Source: Escherichia coli (GTDB lineage: Bacteria > Pseudomonadota > Gammaproteobacteria > Enterobacterales > Enterobacteriaceae). From it: a DNA stretch of 64,000 nt. The stretch is from assembly GCF_044324875.1 (NCBI RefSeq), contig NZ_CP172185.1; one strand, given 5' to 3'. Under the pieces are notes generated by a model, which was given only the letters and a program-made list of their open reading frames with translations, did not search any database and was not told the DNA's origin. Below, in pieces: positions 3,556-39,253 of the stretch; positions within the stretch are counted from its first letter, which is position 1; each line of letters begins with the position of its first letter. Made by a program: the position numbers and the translations under genes.

Positions 3556-4203
3556 GTGAAGCTATACATTTACGATCACTGCCCTTACTGCCTCAAAGCC
3601 CGCATGATTTTCGGCCTGAAAAATATCCCCGTCGAATTACATGTTCTGCTCAACGACGACGCAGAAACACCCACCCGGATGGTCGGTCAAAAACAGGTTC
3701 CCATTCTGCAAAAAGATGACAGCCGCTATATGCCAGAAAGCATGGACATCGTTCACTATGTCGATAAACTCGACGGCAAACCGTTACTGACCGGCAAACG
3801 TTCCCCTGCCATTGAAGAGTGGCTGCGCAAGGTCAATGGCTACGCCAACAAACTGCTGTTGCCGCGTTTTGCCAAATCGGCATTTGATGAGTTTTCTACT
3901 CCCGCCGCGCGCAAATATTTCGTCGACAAGAAAGAGGCCAGCGCGGGTAATTTTGCCGACCTGCTGGCCCACTCTGACGGTCTGATTAAGAATATCAGCG
4001 ATGATTTACGTGCGCTGGACAAACTGATCGTCAAACCGAACGCCGTGAATGGCGAACTTTCGGAAGATGATATTCAGCTATTTCCGCTCCTGCGTAATCT
4101 GACGCTGGTAGCCGGAATCAACTGGCCAAGCCGCGTTGCTGATTACCGCGATAATATGGCGAAACAGACACAAATCAATTTGTTATCATCAATGGCGATT
4201 TAA
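3556..4203 (+). CDS. grxB: glutaredoxin 2
   Basis: 215-aa ORF with CPYC active site (MKLYIYDHCPYCLKAR...); GTG start preceded by GGAGGA. Confidence 0.92.
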   Translation: MKLYIYDHCPYCLKARMIFGLKNIPVELHVLLNDDAETPTRMVGQKQVPILQKDDSRYMPESMDIVHYVDKLDGKPLLTGKRSPAIEEWLRKVNGYANKLLLPRFAKSAFDEFSTPAARKYFVDKKEASAGNFADLLAHSDGLIKNISDDLRALDKLIVKPNAVNGELSEDDIQLFPLLRNLTLVAGINWPSRVADYRDNMAKQTQINLLSSMAI

Positions 4204-4336
4204 TCCTGACCCGCCGCGGCAGCCTGTATTCGCGGGTTGCCGCCGTTTTCAGTTTTTTCTGCTGGCGCGTTTATCGCTGGTGACACATGCTGCGTTGTGT
4301 CAGGATATTGACGCAGATTTCATGTCGAGGACTACC

Positions 4337-4897
4337 ATGAACAAGTTTTTATTTGCCGCTGCATTGATCGTCAGTGGCCTGCTCGTTGGCTGTAATCAAC
4401 TCACCCAATACACCATCACCGAACAAGAAATTAACCAGTCGCTTGCGAAACATAATAATTTCTCAAAAGATATCGGTTTACCCGGCGTGGCTGACGCCCA
4501 TATTGTTCTGACAAACCTGACCAGCCAAATTGGTCGCGAAGAGCCGAATAAGGTTACCCTAACCGGAGACGCCAATCTGGACATGAACTCCCTGTTCGGT
4601 AGCCAGAAAGCGACCATGAAACTGAAGCTGAAAGCGCTGCCCGTGTTTGATAAAGAAAAAGGTGCGATCTTCCTGAAAGAGATGGAAGTGGTCGATGCGA
4701 CGGTACAACCGGAAAAAATGCAAACGGTGATGCAAACGTTGCTCCCCTATTTGAACCAGGCATTACGCAATTACTTTAACCAGCAACCAGCTTACGTCCT
4801 GCGCGAAGATGGCAGCCAGGGCGAAGCAATGGCGAAGAAACTGGCGAAAGGCATTGAAGTGAAGCCAGGCGAAATTGTCATTCCGTTTACTGATTAA
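4337..4897 (+). CDS. yceB: lipoprotein YceB (DUF1439)
   Basis: Internal ATG of ORF 4136-4897 gives MNKFLFAAALIVSGLLVGC lipobox signal peptide; 186 aa. Confidence 0.9.
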   Translation: MNKFLFAAALIVSGLLVGCNQLTQYTITEQEINQSLAKHNNFSKDIGLPGVADAHIVLTNLTSQIGREEPNKVTLTGDANLDMNSLFGSQKATMKLKLKALPVFDKEKGAIFLKEMEVVDATVQPEKMQTVMQTLLPYLNQALRNYFNQQPAYVLREDGSQGEAMAKKLAKGIEVKPGEIVIPFTD

Positions 4898-4902
4898 TCA
4901 CG

Positions 4903-4928
4903 AGGGCGCATTCGCGCCCTTTATTTTT
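4903..4928 (+). terminator. rho-independent terminator downstream of yceB
   Basis: GC stem agggcgc/gcgccct with 4-nt loop followed by T-run ttatttttcg. Confidence 0.6.
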
Positions 4929-4935
4929 CGTGCAA

Positions 4936-4951
4936 AGGAAAACGTTTCCGC
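4936..4951. promoter_or_regulatory. candidate PurR operator in pyrC control region
   Basis: Palindrome aggaaaacgtttccgc resembles the PurR box (ACGCAAACGTTTGCGT-type); pyrC is a known PurR target. Confidence 0.5.
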
Positions 4952-5002
4952 TTATCCTTTGTGTCCGGCAAAAACATCCCTTCAGCCGGAGCATAGAGAT
5001 TA

Positions 5003-6049
5003 ATGACTGCACCATCCCAGGTATTAAAGATCCGCCGCCCAGACGACTGGCACCTTCACCTCCGCGATGGCGACATGTTAAAAACTGTCGTGCCGTATAC
5101 CAGCGAAATTTATGGACGGGCTATCGTAATGCCCAATCTGGCTCCGCCCGTGACCACCGTTGAGGCTGCCGTGGCTTATCGCCAGCGTATTCTTGACGCC
5201 GTACCTGCCGGGCACGATTTCAGCCCGCTGATGACCTGTTATTTGACAGATTCACTAGACCCTAATGAGCTTGAGCGTGGATTTAACGAAGGCGTGTTCA
5301 CCGCTGCCAAACTTTACCCGGCAAACGCAACCACTAACTCCAGTCACGGCGTGACGTCAGTTGACGCAATCATGCCGGTACTTGAGCGCATGGAAAAAAT
5401 CGGTATGCCGTTACTGGTGCATGGTGAAGTGACACATGCAGATATCGACATTTTTGATCGTGAAGCGCGCTTTATTGAAAGCGTGATGGAACCGCTGCGC
5501 CAGCGCCTGACTGCGCTGAAAGTCGTTTTTGAGCACATCACCACCAAAGATGCTGCCGACTATGTCCGTAACGGAAATGAACGGCTGGCTGCCACCATCA
5601 CTCCGCAGCATCTGATGTTTAACCGCAACCATATGCTGGTTGGTGGCGTGCGTCCACACCTGTATTGTCTACCCATCCTCAAACGCAATATTCACCAACA
5701 GGCACTGCGTGAACTGGTCGCCAGCGGTTTTAATCGCGTATTCCTCGGTACGGATTCTGCGCCGCATGCACGTCATCGCAAAGAGAGCAGCTGCGGCTGC
5801 GCGGGCTGCTTCAACGCCCCCACCGCGCTGGGCAGTTACGCTACCGTCTTTGAAGAGATGAATGCTCTGCAGCACTTTGAAGCATTCTGTTCTGTAAACG
5901 GCCCGCAGTTCTATGGCTTGCCGGTCAACGACACATTCATCGAACTGGTCCGCGAAGAGCAACAGGTTGCTGAAAGCATCGCATTGACTGATGACACACT
6001 GGTGCCATTCCTCGCCGGGGAAACGGTACGCTGGTCCGTTAAACAATAA
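5003..6049 (+). CDS. pyrC: dihydroorotase
   Basis: 348-aa [30 protein letters not shown]... canonical class II dihydroorotase. Confidence 0.95.
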
Positions 6050-6085
6050 AAATCCTAGCTTCCTGTTGTCATTAGGTTATTTTAC

Positions 6086-6101
6086 CTGTATAAATAACCA
6101 G
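6086..6101. promoter_or_regulatory. LexA (SOS) box upstream of dinI
   Basis: CTGTATAAATAACCAG fits CTG-N10-CAG consensus, 22 bp upstream of the dinI start. Confidence 0.75.
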
Positions 6102-6122
6102 TATATTCAACAGGGGGCTATT

Positions 6123-6368
6123 ATGCGAATTGAAGTCACCATAGCGAAAACTTCTCCATTGCCAGCTGGGGCTATTGACGCCCTGGCTGGCGAACTTTCC
6201 CGCCGTATTCAGTATGCGTTTCCTGATAATGAAGGCCACGTATCGGTACGTTATGCCGCAGCGAATAATTTATCGGTTATTGGCGCAACAAAAGAAGATA
6301 AACAGCGCATTAGCGAAATTCTCCAGGAAACGTGGGAAAGCGCCGATGACTGGTTTGTCAGCGAATAA
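6123..6368 (+). CDS. dinI: DNA damage-inducible protein I
   Basis: Internal ATG of ORF 5991-6368 gives 81-aa MRIEVTIAKTSPLPAGAIDALAGELSRR... Confidence 0.92.
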   Translation: MRIEVTIAKTSPLPAGAIDALAGELSRRIQYAFPDNEGHVSVRYAAANNLSVIGATKEDKQRISEILQETWESADDWFVSE

Positions 6369-6389
6369 TATGCAGTGATTTTTGTTTTT

Positions 6390-6416
6390 GCCGGGTCGCC
6401 CCGGCTTTTTTATTTT
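6390..6416 (+). terminator. rho-independent terminator downstream of dinI
   Basis: gccggg-tcgc-cccggc stem-loop followed by ttttttatttt. Confidence 0.6.
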
Positions 6417-6657
6417 ACTTACAAATTTTGAGTACAAAATTTCTACACTTCCTCAAAATAATTGCACAATATGCTAAAAAAATATGAATGACATGCTGTT
6501 TTATTGTTCATATAAATCTTAAAAGCAGAAATTTATCTGTTCCCCCCTTTAAAAATTCGGTGAATACCCTTACTTATTGGTATACTGAAGTTGCTTCAGA
6601 TAAAAACGCATTGAACCTCGAATAACGTTGTCTAGTAACACGAATTAGGGGGCCATG

Positions 6658-6912
6658 ATGGAAAAAAATAATGAAGTCATTCAGACTCATCCGCTCGTAG
6701 GGTGGGACATCAGCACCGTTGATAGCTATGATGCGCTGATGTTGCGTTTGCACTACCAGACCCCAAATAAGTCCGAGCAGGAAGGGACTGAAGTTGGTCA
6801 GACGCTCTGGTTAACCACTGATGTTGCCAGACAATTTATTTCGATATTAGAAGCAGGAATCGCCAAAATTGAATCCGGTGATTTCCCGGTAAACGAGTAT
6901 CGGCGTCATTAA
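6658..6912 (+). CDS. bssS: biofilm regulator BssS
   Basis: ORF 6655-6912, MEKNNEVIQTHPLVGWDISTVDSYDALMLRLHYQ... Confidence 0.9.
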   Translation: MEKNNEVIQTHPLVGWDISTVDSYDALMLRLHYQTPNKSEQEGTEVGQTLWLTTDVARQFISILEAGIAKIESGDFPVNEYRRH

Positions 6913-7026
6913 CATGACATGACCATCCACCCAAAAGGCACCTCACCGGTGCCTTTACCATTTCTGGGTTGTATATCTGCATTCAGTTAATTACTCTGCT
7001 TAAACCATGAGAGCAGAGAGAAAAAA

Positions 7027-11030: not shown

Positions 11031-11951
11031 ATGACGAATCTACCCAAGTTCTCCACCGCACTGCTTCATCCGCGTTATTGGTTAACCTGGTTGGGTATTG
11101 GCGTACTTTGGTTAGTCGTGCAATTGCCCTACCCGGTTATCTACCGCCTCGGTTGTGGATTAGGAAAACTGGCGTTACGTTTTATGAAACGACGCGCAAA
11201 AATTGTGCATCGCAACCTGGAACTGTGCTTCCCGGAAATGAGCGAACAAGAACGCCGTAAAATGGTGGTGAAGAATTTCGAATCCGTTGGCATGGGACTG
11301 ATGGAAACTGGCATGGCGTGGTTCTGGCCGGACCGCAGAATAGCCCGCTGGACGGAAGTGATCGGCATGGAACACATTCGTGACGTGCAGGCGCAAAAAC
11401 GCGGCATCCTGTTAGTTGGCATCCATTTTCTGACACTGGAGCTGGGTGCGCGGCAGTTTGGTATGCAGGAACCGGGGATTGGCGTTTACCGCCCGAACGA
11501 TAATCCACTGATTGACTGGCTACAAACCTGGGGCCGTTTGCGCTCAAATAAATCGATGCTCGACCGCAAAGATTTAAAAGGCATGATTAAAGCCCTGAAA
11601 AAAGGCGAAGTGGTCTGGTACGCACCGGATCATGATTACGGCCCGCGCTCAAGCGTTTTCGTCCCGTTGTTTGCCGTTGAGCAGGCTGCGACCACGACCG
11701 GAACCTGGATGCTGGCACGGATGTCCGGCGCATGTCTGGTGCCCTTCGTTCCACGCCGTAAGCCAGATGGCAAAGGGTATCAGTTGATTATGCTGCCGCC
11801 AGAGTGTTCTCCGCCGCTGGATGATGCCGAAACCACCGCCGCGTGGATGAACAAAGTGGTCGAAAAATGCATCATGATGGCACCAGAGCAGTATATGTGG
11901 TTACACCGTCGCTTTAAAACACGCCCGGAAGGCGTTCCTTCACGCTATTAA
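11031..11951 (+). CDS. lpxL: lipid A biosynthesis lauroyltransferase
   Basis: Internal ATG of ORF 10968-11951 gives [24 protein letters not shown]..., 306 aa. Confidence 0.93.
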
Positions 11952-30180: not shown

Positions 30181-31023
30181 CTATACTGCCAGCATGTCAG
30201 GATAGTGTCTGACGATAATATCATTCAGTCTGTCAACCAGTTCCGGTTTCCTGAACGTGATATGCGCGGAGCCTTTCCTGAAGTATCTGATGCTGAACAT
30301 CTCATCCTCATAGCATGCTTCACCCTGAACGGACCGGATGTGCTCATCCAGACGAATGAGGATATTGTCCCGGTCAGTGGGTATGGGTTTACCGCTGAAC
30401 AGATACAGTATCCTTTCCAGGTCGGCAAGCCGCCCGGCCTGCGGACCATGGTTCAGACCAAATCCCCACCAGTCCCATTTCACCAGGTTGTTGAGGATAA
30501 TCTTACTGCCGAATTTACAGGGTGACCCGCTGTTGTGCGTCCGGCTCAGTCCTCTGAAGAGGTTGATGACGCCCCGTTCAGCCATTTCATCCCTGTTACG
30601 GTGCAGTTGTTCAGACGTACTCAGGATATTCGCTTCGCTGATTTCCGGAAAATTATCCTCCTCCAGTGAACGGTACCATTCATCACGCGCCTGTGCATCC
30701 ATCAGACTCAGCATCCCGGAGCGTTGCATCAGGTCACGCCAGATTTCACGGTCAAGGTTCCGGGTGATGGCTTTCATTGCGGTTTCCGGTTTTTCCATCA
30801 GCCAGCAGCCACAGCGAAAATCCTGTTTCACGGCCCAGTCCCGGGCCGTTTTACCTCCGATGCTTTCTGTCATTACTGAGATTTCTGCCAGTTGCCGGAT
30901 AAGCCTTTCGGTTTGTTGCAGTGCTTCATTCCGTACCGTCACAACGTGCCGGATACTGGTTGAGCAGATAACGTCCGTATGTCCGTTAAGCGTTTCCGGA
31001 CGGGAGACTGTGATATCAGACAT
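30181..31023 (-). CDS. conserved island hypothetical protein, 280 aa (possibly DUF4942-type; family not confirmed)
   Basis: Long ORF MSDITVSRPETLNGHTDVICSTSIRHVVTVRNEALQQTERLIRQ... at the tRNA-proximal edge of the island. Confidence 0.55.
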   Translation of the reverse strand: MSDITVSRPETLNGHTDVICSTSIRHVVTVRNEALQQTERLIRQLAEISVMTESIGGKTARDWAVKQDFRCGCWLMEKPETAMKAITRNLDREIWRDLMQRSGMLSLMDAQARDEWYRSLEEDNFPEISEANILSTSEQLHRNRDEMAERGVINLFRGLSRTHNSGSPCKFGSKIILNNLVKWDWWGFGLNHGPQAGRLADLERILYLFSGKPIPTDRDNILIRLDEHIRSVQGEACYEDEMFSIRYFRKGSAHITFRKPELVDRLNDIIVRHYPDMLAV

Positions 31024-31119
31024 AACCGATATTCCTTTTTGCAGATAAATGAAAACGCCAGCCGTATTCGGACTGGCGTCAGTGGAATGAATCGTGGTGA
31101 GTGAGATGATGAGTGAGAC

Positions 31120-31317
31120 TCACAGGTTCTGGTGCTGAAGCTGCAGCTGGCGCAGGGTGCGGATATCCTCCCTGGCCTGTTCGATACAGGGCAACAGTGC
31201 TGCCGAATCCGTTTTATCCTCATCGTTGTCGAAGATAATGCAGGAGCCGCAGTCGATATTGTCCTGCAGCCACGCAATCAGAATATCCGGTGCTGTTTCT
31301 GTGGTTAATGATTTCAT
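31120..31317 (-). CDS. small hypothetical protein (65 aa)
   Basis: C-terminal in-frame part (MKSLTTETAPDILIAWLQDNIDCGSCIIFDNDEDKTD...) of ORF 31120-31704, directly downstream of the yeeW-like gene; no clear SD. Confidence 0.3.
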   Translation of the reverse strand: MKSLTTETAPDILIAWLQDNIDCGSCIIFDNDEDKTDSAALLPCIEQAREDIRTLRQLQLQHQNL

Positions 31318-31336
31318 ACGGTGTCTTTTGTCCCGG

Positions 31337-31825
31337 TTACCAGTCGAAAGTGGGAAAACCCGGCAGACATTCAGCGCCGGCATCCAGATGAATGAGACTG
31401 ACGCCATAACGCCGGATGAGAGTGACAACCAGACGACGAAACGTTTTTGACAGACCCAGGCGTTTAAGCCGCAGAGCCGGGTACGACCACGCATCAGTAC
31501 GTAACAGATATCCGCTGCCTGTAAAATGAATCCATTCTGATTCGCCGTTGTCATTCGTCTGATGCGACAGCGAGTACAGCCAGGCATTGTCCTGCTCCGT
31601 GATATGTGCGGTACTGCAGCGTATGCCGGTAAGGGCCGCAAATGGTGGCATGCAGTCTGCTGAGGTCCGGTCAGATTCATCAGCAACACGAAGGGAACAG
31701 CCATTATCGCAGACCACGTTAATCAGTTCAGCGAGATTAACACCATCGACGTCAGCGACAATGCGCCCCATGTTCAGTGCCTGTACGTTAACGCTGTCGG
31801 CTTCCAGTGTCAGGGACAGTTTCAT
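31337..31825 (-). CDS. YeeW-like protein (162 aa)
   Basis: [31 protein letters not shown]...; start overlaps cbtA stop (ATGA); position equals yeeW in CP4-44-type modules. Confidence 0.5.
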
Positions 31826-32199
31826 GGTTTCACCTCACAGTGTTTACCCAGGGTGATGTTGTTCACCATTCTGTAGTGGCTGCGGGTCATCAGGCCGGTC
31901 GCCCGGCGGGCCCGGAGAATATCAATGCTGCTGATTAACTGCGATGAAGCTCCTGCGCTGAATCCCGGCTGGTCGGTACGCACCAGCGCGTATTTTTCCA
32001 CAAGAAAGTTCACCGCATCACACAGTGAAATACCCGCCTCAATATGCTGCTCAATCACACGTTCATCGGCGAACGGTGTGTCATTCAGCGTGAGGCCGTA
32101 GTGCTGGTCCAGCAGCCGGGTGAGCAGTGTCTGCCAGATTTCAACCGGAGACGGGCAGCGCGATGTTGCCCGTACGTGTGTGTCGGGGAATGTTTTCAT
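31822..32199 (-). CDS. cbtA: CbtA/YeeV-family toxin (cytoskeleton-binding toxin)
   Basis: ORF 31822-32325; internal start [56 protein letters not shown]... closely resembles YeeV. Confidence 0.85.
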
Positions 32200-32257
32200 C
32201 TTAAGTACTCTGTAACAGGTGATGATAAAGAAGTGCTGTCCGGGGTTATGCGGTGGT

Positions 32258-32623
32258 TCAGGGTGTTGCCGGTGTCGGATAAATGGCGATATACACGTAA
32301 CCACAACTGCCGAGGGTGTCGGCATCGCAGGTCAGCCCTTTCGCATACAGTGTCACGGTATGCTGATGGCGGGGACTGAGTTCACCGCTGGTGAGCATGA
32401 GTTCCAGCTGTTTCATCAGCAGCGGAAAGGCCTGGTCCAGGTGGTACGCATCTGCGTCGCTGAACCGGCCTCTGATACCGGCGCGGTCTGCAAGGTAATG
32501 CAGGCGGTTACCCTCCTGCACCAGACGGGCACCGAAACAGGGCGTCACGGTGCAGGGCAGCCCCCACCAGGGGCGGTCGCTGTTGTCGTCAGGATGCGTT
32601 GTCCCGGTGAGTGTGTCTGACAT
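32258..32623 (-). CDS. cbeA: CbeA/YeeU-family antitoxin
   Basis: 121-aa [53 protein letters not shown]... closely resembles YeeU. Confidence 0.85.
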
Positions 32624-32673
32624 GATAAAGTCCTCACTGATAATCGGTTAAGAATGGTTTTAACAATGACGGG

Positions 32674-33318
32674 TCAGCCGGCGCGCAGACCGGCTTCGGT
32701 GAAGGTGTATCCGTTGATGAGAAGGGCCTCATCCACGGCGTCGTCTGAGGTCAGCCAGTCGTACTCGTTTTCCAGTTGACTGTATAACCAGAAGGCAAGG
32801 TCCCGCAGGGCGTCACAGACAACGGTTTCCGCGCTGGCTGTCATTGCCTGTCCGGTCGGACTGTCCCGGGTGACGGTGATATCCATGCTGTACGGATGGC
32901 AGTAGTGTCCCCGGTGGCGGATTTCAGCCTGAAGCTGCCGGAAGTTACGCTTCTGCACCGCCTGCAGGGCATCCGCGATACGATGAAGCTCACGGTCCTG
33001 CGGGGCATATTCCCTGATTTTCCGGGGTGCCGCTGGCTGCCAGCGCCAGCGTCCTTCAAAACAGGCTCCGTCCCCCTGGCTGCAGAATCCGCTGAACCAG
33101 ATGCACGGCTCTTCCATAAACCTGCCGTTGCTGAGCCGGATAACACGCTGGCGGAGGGCAATCCCGACAATCTCACAGACCGTCCTGAAGTCCTCATACA
33201 CGTTTTCATACCAGTTGCTGTCAGCATGATGCTGACGGTACCATTCACGGGCCTTCTCCCGTGCTGTGGCGGAAAGTTCATCCGGCGTATACACGGTGGT
33301 GATGATAATTCTGCTCAT
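32674..33318 (-). CDS. hypothetical protein (about 214 aa) between yeeT-like and cbeA
   Basis: ORF 32674-33330; ATG at 33318 (MSRIIITTVYTPDELSATAREKAREWYRQHH...) with GGAG 6 nt upstream; protein-like composition, overlapping alternative-frame ORFs look non-coding. Confidence 0.55.
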   Translation of the reverse strand: MSRIIITTVYTPDELSATAREKAREWYRQHHADSNWYENVYEDFRTVCEIVGIALRQRVIRLSNGRFMEEPCIWFSGFCSQGDGACFEGRWRWQPAAPRKIREYAPQDRELHRIADALQAVQKRNFRQLQAEIRHRGHYCHPYSMDITVTRDSPTGQAMTASAETVVCDALRDLAFWLYSQLENEYDWLTSDDAVDEALLINGYTFTEAGLRAG

Positions 33319-33334
33319 CCGCATCTCCACTGAC

Positions 33335-33556
33335 TCAGTTCAGGGTGACGCTCATCAGCCGGACATACGGGCCAAAACTGTCCTTCCGGCGTTCGGCAAA
33401 CACGGCAAGCACACCGGGGATATCCTGCACTTCACGACCGGTATACGCTTCAGCACTGCCGTGCCAGCGGTATTTACCGGTACAGAACGGAAAAAGACGG
33501 GATGACGGATACTGACGGTGAACGCGCATGGCTTCACCACGGGTGATGATTTTCAT
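33335..33556 (-). CDS. yeeT: YeeT-like protein (DUF987)
   Basis: 73-aa ORF MKIITRGEAMRVHRQYPSSRLFPFCTGKYRWHGSAEAYTGREVQDIPGVLAVFAERRKD... Confidence 0.8.
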   Translation of the reverse strand: MKIITRGEAMRVHRQYPSSRLFPFCTGKYRWHGSAEAYTGREVQDIPGVLAVFAERRKDSFGPYVRLMSVTLN

Positions 33557-33645
33557 GAGAACAGTCCTCCTGAATGTGAAAGTGAGAAACAGCTGAGAAA
33601 GAGAAACTGAAGTGACAATATGAAGGTGGCTGTGACGGTGACGGA

Positions 33646-34122
33646 TTAAAGCAGACCGTGTTCCGCAAAGGAGAACACCCGGCTGCCACCGACTATCAAA
33701 TGGTCCGGTACCCGGATATCCACCAGGGCCAGTGCCTGTACCAGACGTTCAGTGATAAGGCGGTCTGCCTTACCGGGTGTGACCTCACCGGACGGATGAT
33801 TGTGCGCCAGCACCACGGCAGCGGCATTGTGGTACAGGGCGCGTTTAACCACCTCCCGGGGATGCACTTCCGTGCGGTTGATGGTGCCGGTGAAGAGGGT
33901 TTCACCGGCAATCAGCTGATTCTGGTTGTTCAGGTACAGCACCCGGAACTCTTCCCGCTCCAGTCCCGCCATGTGCAGAATCAGCCATTCCCGTGCCGCA
34001 TGCGTGGAGGTGAAGGCCACGCCGGGTTCATGAAGATGGCGGTCCAGGGTTTTCAGGGCCCGCTGAATGAGGCTGCGCTCGCCGGGCGTCATCGCGCCGG
34101 GCAGAAAGGAAATCTGTTGCAT
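33646..34122 (-). CDS. RadC-like JAB-domain protein (YeeS/YkfG/YfjY family)
   Basis: ORF 33646-34164 with JAMM-like motif HNHPSGEVTPGKADRLITERL. Confidence 0.85.
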   Translation of the reverse strand: MQQISFLPGAMTPGERSLIQRALKTLDRHLHEPGVAFTSTHAAREWLILHMAGLEREEFRVLYLNNQNQLIAGETLFTGTINRTEVHPREVVKRALYHNAAAVVLAHNHPSGEVTPGKADRLITERLVQALALVDIRVPDHLIVGGSRVFSFAEHGLL

Positions 34123-34133
34123 AACCTCACTCC

Positions 34134-34607
34134 TCAGTCGATGATGCGCATAATGGCGCTGCATTCCGGATGCTGCAGGGCGTAATCCCGCAGCCGGTAA
34201 TAATGGACCGTCATGGCATAATGCTCCGTACGGCAGGCGTGATGACTGTAGGCCATCAGGCAGGCGGCAATGCCGGCGGCTTCAGGGCTCATTTCCGCGC
34301 GGTTGCCGTTCATGGTGTTAAACAGTGCCCATGTTTCGTCATCATCGTCACCCGGTTCGGGAGCCATAAATGCGCCGCCGTTGTTCAGGGTGTACATATT
34401 CCAGATACCCCCACTGTAGTCTTCACACAGACGGTCCATCCAGCCGAAGATTCGGGGCTCAAGGGTCACCCACTGCGGAATGAGGCCAAAGTGCTGCGGC
34501 CAGAAGCTGATGCGCTGTTCGTCAGGCACTGGGCTGGCAACCAGCTGAGGTGGATTATTCCCGGATGCAGTGGTTGCGGAAACAGAGTCATGCGAAACCG
34601 TTTTCAT
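34134..34607 (-). CDS. antirestriction protein (YfjX/YafX, KlcA/ArdB-like family)
   Basis: ORF 34134-34709; family-conserved part starts at ATG 34607 (MKTVSHDSVSATTASG...); tail ...HHACRTEHYAMTVHYYRLRDYALQHPECSAIMRIID; upstream ORF extension runs into IS21 DNA. Confidence 0.8.
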   Translation of the reverse strand: MKTVSHDSVSATTASGNNPPQLVASPVPDEQRISFWPQHFGLIPQWVTLEPRIFGWMDRLCEDYSGGIWNMYTLNNGGAFMAPEPGDDDDETWALFNTMNGNRAEMSPEAAGIAACLMAYSHHACRTEHYAMTVHYYRLRDYALQHPECSAIMRIID

Positions 34608-34825
34608 AAGTGAAATCCTTAAGTGCAAAATGGCATCTGAATCGATCGCAGTTTGGCATTCGAATCGATCATGATTTGGCATCCATCTCCGATCACAGTT
34701 TGGCATCACAATCGATCACGATTTGGCATGCTTCCGATCATTGATTGGCATCCTGCCAGTCACTCCGGGAATTAACTCTTTTCACCACAGTCTCCATTGC
34801 CGTGTTTAAACCAGTGGAGACGTCA

Positions 34826-36391
34826 ATGTCCAGAAAGAGAAAATCCAGGAGCACTATGGAAACCTGTTTTAAGATCCTTCAGCTCAAGTTCGACAAGAAG
34901 CTGACTAACCGTTGTATCGGACTGACGTTACACATCAGCGCCTCAACCGTTTTTGAGGTTCTTGCCCGCTTCAAAGCCTCTTCTCTGTCATGGCCATTAC
35001 CTGCTGATATATCCCATGACACGCTGGAGAAACTCATTTTTCCGCCCAAAGACACCTTTGCATCAGAGCTTGTAATGCCTGACATGTTGTACTTCGATAC
35101 GGAAATGAGAAAACCAGGTGTGACGCGGCAACTGTTGTGGATGGAATACAAGGCACAGGCGGGTAACAAAGCGATGGGATACTCGCACTTCTGCCGTTGC
35201 TACCGGGAGTGGAAAAAAACGCGACGTCTCTCCATGCGCCAGGAGCATCGTGCCGGCGAAAAGCTTTTTATCGACTTCTGTGGTCCTACGGTTCCTGTTA
35301 TTAATCCGGACACCGGTGAGATACGCCGCGTGGCAATCTTCGTGGCCGTAATGGGGGCGTCCAACTATACCTACGTTGAAGCGTGCGAAGGTCAGGACAT
35401 GATGTCATGGTTAAATGCCCACAGCCGTTGCCTGACCTTCCTGGGCGGCGTACCGAAGCTGCTCATCCCCGATAACCTCAGAAGCGCAGTGAAAAAGGCC
35501 GATCGATATGAGCCTGTCATCAACGACAGTTATCAGGCACTGGCTGAGCACTATGGCACGGTTATCATCCCGGCCCGACCACGCAAACCTAAAGATAAAC
35601 CAAAAGCAGAAAACGGCGTCCTCATCGTTGAACGATGGCTTCTTGCCCGCATCCGTAATGAAACCTTCCACACGCTCAGGGCGCTGAATGCGCGCCTTAG
35701 GGAGTTACTGACAGACATGAATAACCGGCCAATGAAGGGGTACGGCAATCAAACCCGTGCAGAACGCTTCCGCATACTGGATGCGCCAGCACTCTCTCCG
35801 CTGCCTCTGGCACCTTATGAATACACGGAATACAAAGCTGTGAAGGTTGGCCCTGACTACCACGTTGAATATGCCCGTCACTGGTACTCCGTTCCACACG
35901 AACTGGTCGGTCAGCGTCTGTCACTGAAGGCGGGGCAGTCGGTGGTACAGCTCTGGCACAAGGGGCAGTGTGTGGCGCAACATCCGCGCAGCACACATGA
36001 ATATAAACACACAACCAATCCGCTTCACATGCCAGAGCGCCACCGGCAGCACGGGACATGGACACCGGAACGCCTGATCGAGCAGGGAAAACGTACGGGC
36101 CCGTCCACAGGCCGGGTGGTTGAATCCATGCTGAAGGCAAAACCCCATCCGGAACTGGCTTATCGTGCAGTTCTGGGGCTGCTGGCACTTCAGAAAAAAT
36201 ACGGCCCGGAACGGCTGGAAAAGGCCTGTTACGTTGCCCTGCACTATAACGCCCCTGACAGACGCTTTATCGACAATCTGCTGCGTCACCATCGGGAGAA
36301 CCTGGAGCTTCCATTATCCCGCCAGGGCGAACAACATCCGGCATATGCTTCAGAGCATGAAAACCTGCGTGGTCCGGGCTACTACCACTGA
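34826..36391 (+). CDS. istA: IS21-family transposase IstA
   Basis: Internal ATG of ORF 34745-36391 (MSRKRKSRSTMETCFKILQLKFDKK...) preceded by GGAGA; HTH plus DDE integrase core. Confidence 0.85.
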   Translation: MSRKRKSRSTMETCFKILQLKFDKKLTNRCIGLTLHISASTVFEVLARFKASSLSWPLPADISHDTLEKLIFPPKDTFASELVMPDMLYFDTEMRKPGVTRQLLWMEYKAQAGNKAMGYSHFCRCYREWKKTRRLSMRQEHRAGEKLFIDFCGPTVPVINPDTGEIRRVAIFVAVMGASNYTYVEACEGQDMMSWLNAHSRCLTFLGGVPKLLIPDNLRSAVKKADRYEPVINDSYQALAEHYGTVIIPARPRKPKDKPKAENGVLIVERWLLARIRNETFHTLRALNARLRELLTDMNNRPMKGYGNQTRAERFRILDAPALSPLPLAPYEYTEYKAVKVGPDYHVEYARHWYSVPHELVGQRLSLKAGQSVVQLWHKGQCVAQHPRSTHEYKHTTNPLHMPERHRQHGTWTPERLIEQGKRTGPSTGRVVESMLKAKPHPELAYRAVLGLLALQKKYGPERLEKACYVALHYNAPDRRFIDNLLRHHRENLELPLSRQGEQHPAYASEHENLRGPGYYH

Positions 36392-36407
36392 CAGAAGGAA
36401 CAACAGT

Positions 36408-37163
36408 ATGAGTGATAACCTGTTAAACAAACTGACCCAACTGAAACTCCCGGCGATGGCCGGGAGCCTGATACGGCAGCGGGAAACGCCTCAGACCTAC
36501 GACGAACTGTCGTTCGAGGAAAGGCTGACGCTGCTGGTTGATGACGAGCTTCTGAGCAGGGAAAACAGCCGTGTGGCACGGTTGAGAAAAAATGCCGGCC
36601 TGAAATACCAGGCAACACCGGAAGGGCTGCGCTATCCGGCCTCAAGAGGTCTGCGGGCTGAACAGATGAGAGAACTGCTGAACGGCCACTACATAACCCA
36701 CAGGAAAAACCTGCTGATAACCGGTCCGACAGGATGTGGCAAGAGCTGGATAGCCAATGCGCTGGGCGAACAGGCATGTCGACAGAAACACAGCGTCCGG
36801 TACTGTAGAACCGGGCGATTACTGGAACAACTGGCTCAGGGACGTGTTGATGGCAGCTGGCTGAAATATCTGAAACAGTTGCAAAAAATACAGGTTCTAA
36901 TCCTGGACGATCTGGGGCTGGAACAGTTAAGTAACGCCCAGTGTAATGACCTTCTGGAGCTCATAGAGGATCGTTACGGACAAAGCAGCACGATAGTGGT
37001 AAGCCAGTTCCCGGTAGATAAATGGCATGGTCTGATGGAGAACCCAACAACAGCAGATGCCATCCTGGACAGACTGGTACATAACTCACACCGAGTGGTC
37101 CTTCAGGGAGAGTCACTGAGGAAAAATCCCCCGGTAGTGGAAAGCAGCGAAAAAACGCGTTAA
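36408..37163 (+). CDS. istB: IS21-family helper ATPase IstB
   Basis: Internal ATG of ORF 36165-37163 (MSDNLLNKLTQLKLPAMAG...); Walker A GPTGCGKS. Confidence 0.85.
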   Translation: MSDNLLNKLTQLKLPAMAGSLIRQRETPQTYDELSFEERLTLLVDDELLSRENSRVARLRKNAGLKYQATPEGLRYPASRGLRAEQMRELLNGHYITHRKNLLITGPTGCGKSWIANALGEQACRQKHSVRYCRTGRLLEQLAQGRVDGSWLKYLKQLQKIQVLILDDLGLEQLSNAQCNDLLELIEDRYGQSSTIVVSQFPVDKWHGLMENPTTADAILDRLVHNSHRVVLQGESLRKNPPVVESSEKTR

Positions 37164-37262
37164 AAAGCGGTAGAAAAAGTTAAGTTCCCGGTTGATCGAA
37201 TGGATGCGAATCGCTGATCGGACTTCGATGCCAATCCGTGATCGAATAGAGCGGAATACGCA

Positions 37263-37330
37263 CTTAAGTGAATAAGTGAACAAGTGAATTAAGGAAATAA
37301 GTGAATGAATAAGTGAATAAGAGAGAAAAG
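37263..37330. repeat. tandem array of 8-bp AAGTGAAT-like units
   Basis: cttaagtgaataagtgaacaagtgaattaaggaaataagtgaatgaataagtgaataag; one more unit (aagtgaaat) lies on the other side of the IS21 element at 34609-34617. Confidence 0.7.
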
Positions 37331-37356
37331 ACAGGGCACTGACAGCGTCGCGTTAA

Positions 37357-38175
37357 TCAGCGCAGGCTCTCCAGCAGCGTTTCCGTCATCACCCACAATG
37401 CGCGGTTGAGCTTAATGTCGGTGTCAATGCTGTGAATGGCCCGGGTGTGGATACGTTTTCCTTTTGCACTGCGCCCCTGAAGACCACCCTTGAGCATATT
37501 CTCCTGGATGGTCTGATAAGCACTCCACAGGTCCTTACCGTAATCCTCCCGGCGTCGTGGCGTCAGAATGTCAGCGGTGGTGACGGGCTGATGTTCGTCA
37601 CCATAACGGTAAGTCAGGGCGGCCTGTGCCAGCGCTTGGCGAGCCGGTGGTGGTAAAATCAGCGACTGCATGGCATCACGCTTCTCCTCAATCCGGTCAA
37701 AAACCCCCACCACTTCGTAAGCCCCTTCGATGACCCTGTCCACCACGTTTCCCCGGTGTGGCACACGCACCTCTCCGAGAGACTGACCGCAGACGCACCC
37801 GTTCTGACACACGAACCGGAAGTAACCCGGCAGCATCTGGTAGCTGGAGGTACCGTCATGGGAGTTGAGCAGAATGATTTCCGGGACATGCTGCCCGTTT
37901 ATCTCCCCGTCACGGCGCAGACGCAGCATGTGCTTTGTGTATCCCCGACGTCCCGGGTCCCGCACGCGGGTCTGGCAGGCAAAGAAGGGCTGAAAGCCTT
38001 CCCGCTGCAGGCTTTCCAGCACGGTAATGGTGGGGATGTATGTATAGTTCCGGCTCCGGGAGGTGTGCTTATCTTCCCCGAAAATCCCGGGCACATGGTG
38101 CATCAGTTCTTCATGTGTCAGCGGACGGTCACGGCGTATCTGGTTCGCATAACCAAAACGACTGGCTAATCGCAT
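37357..38175 (-). CDS. DUF932/UPF0380 family protein (YfjQ/YafZ-like)
   Basis: 272-aa ORF MRLASRFGYANQIRRDRPLTHEELMHHVPGIFGEDKHTSRSRNYTYIPTITVLESLQREGFQPFF... Confidence 0.7.
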   Translation of the reverse strand: MRLASRFGYANQIRRDRPLTHEELMHHVPGIFGEDKHTSRSRNYTYIPTITVLESLQREGFQPFFACQTRVRDPGRRGYTKHMLRLRRDGEINGQHVPEIILLNSHDGTSSYQMLPGYFRFVCQNGCVCGQSLGEVRVPHRGNVVDRVIEGAYEVVGVFDRIEEKRDAMQSLILPPPARQALAQAALTYRYGDEHQPVTTADILTPRRREDYGKDLWSAYQTIQENMLKGGLQGRSAKGKRIHTRAIHSIDTDIKLNRALWVMTETLLESLR

Positions 38176-38699
38176 ACTTTGCTCCTTATCAGTGGTTAAG
38201 ACTGACTGACGTAATCAATGAAAAAGCCGCGTCTCCCGGAGAAGACGCGGCCTGATGGATGAAATGAATGAGGGTTTACCGAAGTCCTTCAGCATTGAGG
38301 TGAAGCCGCCGGAAATGTGTTCCCGGGTCATCTTCGATAAATACATTGCGGTAAGCTGTTATGGCAGAAACCGCCTGCACGTGTGAGAAAGGTCTTCGCT
38401 TAAGACGTACTCTGTGTGATCCGGTATTTCTGGTTTCTCCTGATTAATAGCCTCTGCCACAAAGTGTGGAAGAGGCTGAATCATGGTATTTACTTCTTTC
38501 ATCATGGTGGTATTCCGGTGTATTAACCGGGATCTGATTCCGGAAAATAAGGAATAAACGTAAAGGAGCAGAATGCTCGTTATGCCAGACACGCAGGGGG
38601 TAATGCCTCTTCCGGGTGGTTAACCATATTGCCGGGATGTGATGCTTCATATTCCATAACAGAGCGTTGCCTGATGATACTGACTACCAGTGGTTTGAT

Positions 38700-38927
38700 T
38701 CACATATTGGTCGCTGCCCGTTGCTGTACGCCGGCGGCGAAAATGATCTCCAGAGCATTCTGATCGATAACACGGGCCAGATTCGCGTTCAGATTTTCAG
38801 TTTCATTTTCGGTCAGCAGGAAACTGACGGCAAGCCACGTCACCTGCTCCTGAATCATGGCAGGAATTTTGATGCGCTCCTCTTCAGCCAGAGTACCGGC
38901 AATTTTTCCTGATACCACTGCAATCAT
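38700..38927 (-). CDS. hypothetical small protein (75 aa)
   Basis: ORF MIAVVSGKIAGTLAEEERIKIPAMIQEQ...; start overlaps stop of upstream 76-aa ORF by 4 bp. Confidence 0.3.
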   Translation of the reverse strand: MIAVVSGKIAGTLAEEERIKIPAMIQEQVTWLAVSFLLTENETENLNANLARVIDQNALEIIFAAGVQQRAATNM

Positions 38928-39154
38928 TCCTCCCGGAACGCCGCCCGCCAGCGAATATGAAATAACCGGGGTATGCGTTCAGTGATACAGCCAGCCAGTA
39001 AAGCCGGACCGGACAGACACAGCAATATGAGTCCTGCCAGCACAGACGCTGTGCTGGTTAATGCTCTGAACAAAAAGCGAAGAATGGCAAATCCTGCGAT
39101 AAGCAGGATCAGCACGCCGACTATCTGTAACATAGTCCCCCTGATAAATATCAT
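38924..39154 (-). CDS. hypothetical small membrane protein (76 aa)
   Basis: ORF with two hydrophobic segments (LQIVGVLILLIAGFAILRFLF, ASVLAGLILLCLSGPALLAGC) immediately downstream of flu. Confidence 0.3.
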   Translation of the reverse strand: MIFIRGTMLQIVGVLILLIAGFAILRFLFRALTSTASVLAGLILLCLSGPALLAGCITERIPRLFHIRWRAAFREE

Positions 39155-39253
39155 GTTATTGTTAATGCCAGCGAATGTGGCGTTGAATATCCGTTGCGCC
39201 GGTCCGGGTCCCGATCATGATGACCGGGACCACAAAGAGGCAATGCAGAATTG

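Follow-up and report, generated by a model that had tools for sequence, protein, structure and literature searches.

Known pyr leaders and their control

The leader of pyrC, the gene of dihydroorotase, is known from E. coli K-12 and Salmonella and is represented in Rfam by the family PyrC_leader (RF02372). Its pyrimidine control goes in hand with the choice of the transcription start. Two additional Cs at the 5' end of the transcript lead to a stable hairpin that sequesters the ribosome-binding site, and at a low CTP/GTP ratio transcription begins with G and the pyrC mRNA is translated (PMC6524683; PMC7818426). The mechanism of pyrD is the same (PMC6524683; PMC7818426). The pyrD leader of K-12 shares with that of pyrC a C-run followed by G—here 6–9 nt past CATAAT—and a 5'-terminal hairpin with a CCGG core. 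This pyrD hairpin, CCCGGT/ACCGGG, weakens from -10.3 kcal/mol with a C start to -3.1 kcal/mol with a G start. However, the PurR box of pyrD lies approximately 42 nt upstream of the -10 hexamer, whereas the pyrC box sits in the promoter spacer. In addition, the pyrD stem features a loop of 6 nt and stops 6 nt before the Shine-Dalgarno sequence (SD), whereas the pyrC stem overlaps it, and the pyrD leader is no member of RF02372. The two leaders function alike yet are distinct elements. pyrD itself is absent from the window, that is, the whole stretch of 64,000 nt analyzed here.

The leaders of pyrBI, pyrE, and carAB have in common with pyrC that RNA polymerase senses nucleoside triphosphates at initiation and that no dedicated repressor is involved (PMC6524683). 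They are UTP-sensitive and make use of stuttering at a T-run (reiterative transcription) or of a leader peptide combined with a terminator (attenuation), whereas pyrC features neither a T-run at the start, nor a leader ORF, nor a terminator behind the stem.

Purine control is exerted by PurR, the sites of which generally lie between -35 and -10 (PMC3159470) and which directly represses pyrC (PMC3159470; PMC6245113). As relayed in these two papers, in-vitro binding and genetics (Choi & Zalkin 1990; Wilson & Turnbough 1990) put the repression at about 2-fold. The effect on pyrC is described as modest and comparable to that on pyrD and carAB P1 (PMC6245113).

The pyrC locus

The gene order of the locus, mdtH-grxB-yceB-pyrC-dinI-bssS-solA, is the same as in K-12. 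The pyrC coding sequence extends from 5003 to 6049 on the + strand, as judged by the ORF list, the RefSeq annotation, and K-12 b1062; its ATG at 5003 opens an ORF of 348 aa. The preceding gene, yceB, ends with a stop codon at 4895–4897 and is followed by an intrinsic terminator at 4902–4929 (+). This terminator was found in a terminator scan, is the same in K-12, and consists of the stem GAGGGCGC/GCGCCCTT with the loop ATTC and a subsequent T-run. It is the upstream limit of the pyrC control region. A GTG ORF of 77 aa at 4930–5163 (+) begins at the -35-like region, crosses the leader, and overlaps the 5' end of pyrC in another frame; it was treated as a mechanical ORF and not as a gene.

The yceB–pyrC intergenic region together with the first pyrC codons shows 100% identity to that of E. 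coli K-12 MG1655. The single difference in the 141 nt aligned is a synonymous-looking change within yceB, and the alignment with the characterized pyrC leader of K-12 contains no mismatch over the whole intergenic region. This identity bears out the claim of the earlier note that the core region is regulatory-intact. On a larger scale, positions 1–30031 of the window are collinear with K-12 1,127,609–1,097,562 at 98.3%, and the pyrC leader, hence, belongs to the core genome. A megablast search with 4850–5060 against 5426 complete E. coli genomes had matches in 5424 of them, and the RefSeq labels under these matches read 'yceB: lipoprotein' and 'pyrC: dihydroorotase'. Of these 5424 genomes, 5360 carry the 76 bp of 4930–5005 without any change; the one variant inspected, strain ET729, carries a 1-nt deletion in the hairpin loop.

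The pyrC control region almost certainly represents the promoter (sigma-70) and leader (38 nt) that are native to E. coli pyrC, with two layered controls. Compared with the K-12/Salmonella leader (RF02372), it is the same element, with -10 hexamer, start cluster, stem, and SD in register and with no difference from K-12. Promoter and leader are, as such, already known, wild-type, and intact, and dihydroorotase of this strain should be regulated by pyrimidines and purines just as it is in K-12. The locus makes no addition to pyrC biology and serves as a sanity check or positive control.

Promoter elements and the PurR box

The -10 hexamer TATCCT at 4953–4958 (+) coincides with the first six positions of the Rfam PyrC_leader model and matches the consensus in 4/6 positions. 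A -35-like element, GTGCAAA at 4930–4936 (+), was assigned from spacing and conservation. It matches TTGACA in 3/6 positions with a spacer of 17 or 16 bp, and among 23 aligned enterobacterial leaders TGCAAA is invariant, the preceding G being at least 90% conserved. A consensus sigma-70 scan of 4700–5200 detected no promoter. This miss is attributed to a promoter that is weak by consensus in both elements rather than to the absence of a promoter.

The palindrome reported upstream of pyrC in the earlier note is read directly at 4936–4951 as AGGAAAACGTTTCCGC. The interval given there, 4936–5002, runs from the first base of this box through the base before the start codon. The palindrome is imperfect: AAACGTTT alone is perfectly symmetric, and over the full length 10 of 16 positions are symmetric. 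Imperfect symmetry is normal in PurR boxes. Relative to C4965, the box covers -29 to -14; it fills the spacer between -35 and -10 and stops 1 nt short of the -10 hexamer. It was listed as a PurR operator (pur box), without a strand, on the basis of its matrix score and of the literature on direct PurR repression of pyrC.

The underlying log-odds matrix was derived from the 28 motifs that are listed in Table 1 of a ChIP-chip study of PurR (PMC3159470). Since pyrC is outside these 28 training sites, the test is independent. With 17.0 bits, the pyrC box ranks first among the approximately 128,000 positions that the two strands of the window offer. This score is within the training range of 11.8–24.9 bits and under the training median of 20.1 bits. 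If G at position 2 is accepted, the box agrees with the consensus ACGNAAACGTTTGCNT in 13 of the 14 positions specified. Position 13 is C, as opposed to G in 26 of the 28 training sites, and in 22 of the 23 leaders it is C or A—a deviation from the consensus that is conserved across enterics. The core AAACGTTT is invariant in the 23 leaders.

With the operators of the pur regulon, the pyrC box has in common the 16-bp imperfect palindrome, the central CG, the AAACGTTT core, the location between -35 and -10, and a score in the range of bound sites. It differs from this consensus in that C takes the place of G at position 13 and of T at position 16 and is, hence, weaker than the operators of the pur genes. 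In addition, the repression of pyrC is modest, and the site was missed by ChIP-chip (PMC3159470; PMC6245113).

The latter study recovered 13 of 15 known PurR sites; the missed ones were pyrC and glnB, for which the authors gave no reason (PMC3159470). Taken together with the conserved deviation at position 13 and the score below the training median, this could mean that the palindrome does not function in vivo as an operator for PurR. In that case, the palindrome would be kept as promoter spacer or as the site of another protein of the LacI/GalR family, and purine control would be marginal or indirect. This is very unlikely: No position of the window scores higher than the box, which is in the range of bound sites and occupies the usual place of a PurR site between -35 and -10 (PMC3159470). 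The in-vitro binding and genetics relayed in PMC3159470 and PMC6245113 argue for direct, approximately 2-fold repression, and pyrC transcript levels responded to deletion of purR in the very study that missed the site (PMC3159470). An equally slim chance is given to a related reading, in which the invariant AAACGTTT is kept for a non-classical role—as a spacer element in start choice or as the site of a second regulator—with PurR being minor in vivo. The lack of the optimal G at position 13 in all save one lineage and the absence from the ChIP-chip data (PMC3159470) are the grounds for it. The pyrC PurR box is, as such, a weak, sub-consensus site that ChIP-chip missed (PMC3159470).

On the basis of the PurR literature, the dimer of PurR, carrying hypoxanthine or guanine, would bind to 4936–4951. 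Because the box fills the spacer between -35 and -10, PurR would compete with RNA polymerase.

A second inverted repeat, CAAAGGAAAA / TTATCCTTTG at 4933–4942 / 4952–4961, is 9/10 complementary, brackets the PurR core, and takes in the -10 hexamer. It lies upstream of the start sites and is, hence, not part of the RNA; of this repeat, only CAAA/TTTG is conserved in other enterics.

The runner-up of the PurR matrix in the window is ACGAAAACGCTTGAGC at 11647–11662 (-) with 15.0 bits, located approximately inside lpxL by K-12 coordinates. Two exactly tandem matches at 25006–25037 (-), AGGAAACCGCTTGTGT with 14.8 bits and AGGTTATCGTTTGCCC with 14.2 bits, lie inside the 3' end of csgD according to K-12 mapping and rank third and fourth in the window, or second and third if the pyrC box is excluded. 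A third match is found near this pair at 24790. These matches at the csgD 3' end are probably due to chance.

Start-site cluster, leader hairpin, and Shine-Dalgarno sequence

The alternative start cluster T-C-C-G-G is located at 4964–4968 (+); its positions are taken from the sequence, and the starts are predicted. C4965 and C4966 are the seventh and eighth bases past the -10 hexamer and represent the putative CTP starts, and G4967, the ninth base, is the putative GTP start. The locus, hence, features adjacent C and G residues 7–9 nt past -10, with the C start completing the stem—the arrangement of a start switch.

The leader hairpin consists of the 5' arm CCGGC at 4965–4969, a loop of 15 nt, AAAAACATCCCTTCA, at 4970–4984, and the 3' arm GCCGG at 4985–4989 (all +). 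Both arms were assigned from the Rfam consensus structure and from folding. The 5' arm as well as GCCGGAGC, which includes the 3' arm, are invariant in 23/23 leaders. The SD, GGAG at 4988–4991 (+), was read from the sequence and lies 11 nt before the ATG, so that GCCGGAG covers 4985–4991. Pairing across the SD, as claimed in the earlier note, is correct with respect to the CCGGC/GCCGG stem, which is present. As to the SD itself, only its first two bases, G4988 and G4989, are inside the 5-bp stem; the stem overlaps the SD and does not enclose it. A sixth pair, U4964–A4990, is confined to transcripts starting at T4964.

The Rfam model RF02372 matches positions 4953–5002 with 68.7 bits, compared with a gathering score of 50, and is covered over model positions 1–50 of 50. 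For the 64-kb window as a whole, the E-value amounts to 1e-8 (Rfam 15), and the consensus structure of the model is the CCGGC/GCCGG stem. The match ends at 5002, directly before the pyrC ATG at 5003 and on the same strand. Together with the identity to K-12 and the mechanism described in PMC6524683 and PMC7818426, this match supports the earlier assignment to the known nucleotide-sensitive start and hairpin control of pyrC.

Folding with ViennaRNA agrees with this assignment. The minimum free energy structure uses exactly the stem 4965–4969/4985–4989, and the hairpin energy depends on the start: -8.1 kcal/mol from C4965, -5.0 kcal/mol from C4966, -3.0 kcal/mol from G4967, and -1.6 kcal/mol further downstream. 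In transcripts starting with G, too, ViennaRNA predicts that the SD is paired, if weakly, with bases downstream; the contrast between the starts is, hence, one of energy and not a simple call of paired or unpaired. As modeled, these start-dependent energies reproduce the logic of the published CTP/GTP start-site switch.

In this mechanism, RNA polymerase would pick among the adjacent starts 7–9 nt past TATCCT. If CTP is high relative to GTP, transcription would start at C4965 or C4966, and the 5' CCGGC could pair with GCCGG at 4985–4989. The resulting hairpin would overlap the SD GGAG and block ribosome binding. If CTP is low, transcription would start at G4967; the two C residues would be missing, the stem would be reduced to 3 bp, and pyrC would be translated.

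The fold as such is not statistically remarkable. Compared with shuffled sequences, the 28-nt hairpin has a z-score of -2.0, 8 of 200 shuffles folding as well, and for 46 nt the z-score is -1.0. The pattern CCGGC-N10-40-GCCGGAG occurs once in the window versus 0.20 expected, and at least one match is present in 17 of 100 shuffles; the stem motif by itself is weak evidence. It is, hence, identity, the curated model, and conservation that carry the case, and not the folding energy alone. An inverted-repeat search with a minimum seed of 6, which a 5-bp stem does not reach, gave the repeat at 4933–4942 / 4952–4961 described above.

Two other classes of element were considered and rejected. For an intrinsic terminator or attenuator, the stem is followed by AGCATAGAG and no T-run, and the terminator scan detected on this strand no terminator other than that of yceB, placed at 4902–4921. 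For a riboswitch, no riboswitch family was found at 4000–7000 even at E<=10, and the leader has 38 nt and a loop that is variable in length and sequence.

Conservation across enterobacterial leaders

Homologous leaders were collected from two sources. A codon-pattern scan of genome contigs gave mainly non-enteric Proteobacteria among the matches listed and at least three usable enteric loci, from Citrobacter werkmanii, E. albertii, and Superficieibacter electus. All three feature the architecture of the pyrC leader. The RF02372 threshold is reached in Citrobacter and E. albertii; Rfam gave no PyrC_leader match in Superficieibacter, the loop of which is longer and the architecture of which is visible by eye. 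As judged by Rfam and inspection, no pyrC leader is present in the non-enteric loci scanned, among them those of Aliivibrio, Shewanella, Rheinheimera, and Halomonas. A scan of metagenome contigs with an enteric-type PyrC motif yielded 74 loci; it is unbiased for the leader because the search motif lies inside the coding region. Both scans together provided 32 distinct leader sequences, and the alignment comprises 23 leaders. One locus, on CAMDRJ010000024.1 and labelled as a MAG of Klebsiella pneumoniae, was discarded as a non-enteric pyrC. Its pyrC and flanks are GC-rich and lack the pyrC leader; approximately 500 nt from the pyrC motif lies an RNase P RNA. This contig is probably mis-binned.

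The spacing of the elements is the same in all 32 leaders. In each of them, the PurR box ends 1 nt ahead of TAT..T—namely TATCCT, TATGAT, or TATTCT—and CC starts exactly 6 nt past the -10 hexamer, with the arms (T/C)CCGGC and GCCGGAG. The loop is variable in sequence and has a length of 15, 17, 18, 20, 26, 29–30, or 32–34 nt, and the spacing between SD and ATG is 5–11 nt. In the alignment of 23 sequences, the invariant blocks are TGCAAA, AAACGTTT, TAT..T, CCGGCA, and GCCGGAGC. This invariance of elements and spacing in 32 enterobacterial leader variants around a loop of 15–34 nt is a small descriptive addition and no discovery. Compared with the Rfam consensus and other enterics, the E. coli leader carries G in place of U at model position 11, and its loop of 15 nt is the shortest.

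The covariation score of the stem is 0: All 5/5 G-C/C-G pairs never vary in the 23 distinct leaders. Since every stem pair is invariant, the covariation test speaks neither for nor against pairing. In principle, separate constraints could act on the two arms: the context of the start site on the 5' arm and the SD on the 3' arm. The invariant arms around a free loop and the invariant GCC outside the SD fit a structural constraint; this is suggestive and no proof of pairing.

The repeat could also be viewed as a chance by-product of the C/G start cluster and of GGAG with its flank, with pairing that is non-regulatory or that serves only mRNA stability or termination. The zero covariation, the short 5-bp stem with its unremarkable z-score, and the presence of the motif in 17% of shuffled windows fit such a view. 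It is nevertheless hardly credible: The GCC directly 5' of GGAG is invariant in 23/23 leaders even though it is outside the SD, whereas the neighboring loop takes lengths of 15–34 nt. The stem lacks a subsequent T-run and is, hence, not an intrinsic terminator. Furthermore, pyrD independently features a start-dependent 5' hairpin, and the pyrC hairpin is reported to block translation (PMC6524683; PMC7818426). The regulatory hairpin is, thus, by far the preferred reading of the repeat.

The gap between GGAG and ATG is 11 nt in E. coli and E. albertii (4992–5002 here) versus 5–7 nt in the other enterobacterial leaders sampled. The longer gap is due to a 4-nt insertion (CATA-GAGA-TTAATG vs CATATTGATG). 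This insertion after the SD also makes a weak GAG nearer the start. Eight leaders of metagenome loci with long loops (29–34 nt) have in common a core, (A/G)(T/C)GACTGA(T/A), as well as a conserved AACAGCC in the loop. The ATG-like triplet of these loops is ACG or GTG in some leaders and, hence, not maintained as a start codon; the reading frame is not conserved either.

Remainder of the window

The collinearity with K-12 ends at 30031, just past a tRNA (Rfam match at 29941–30025; serX in K-12). The remaining approximately 34 kb are absent from K-12 1,050,001–1,128,000 and have the appearance of a genomic island that integrated at serX. In other E. coli, matches of this island include the Ag43/Cah autotransporter, DUF4942, DUF932, DUF5983, and toxin–antitoxin genes. 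At least 80% of 30026–42000 is covered in one place by only 1 of 5426 genomes. An Rfam match to IS102 RNA (RF00124) at 44845–45041 (-) with 88 bits points to an IS element inside the island.

Two further Rfam matches, both to sRNA families, lie in the part that is collinear with K-12. ES056 (119.7 bits) is found at 24250–24341 (+), which K-12 mapping places in the csgD 5' region, and ES036/CssrF (45.7 bits) at 14110–14152 (+).
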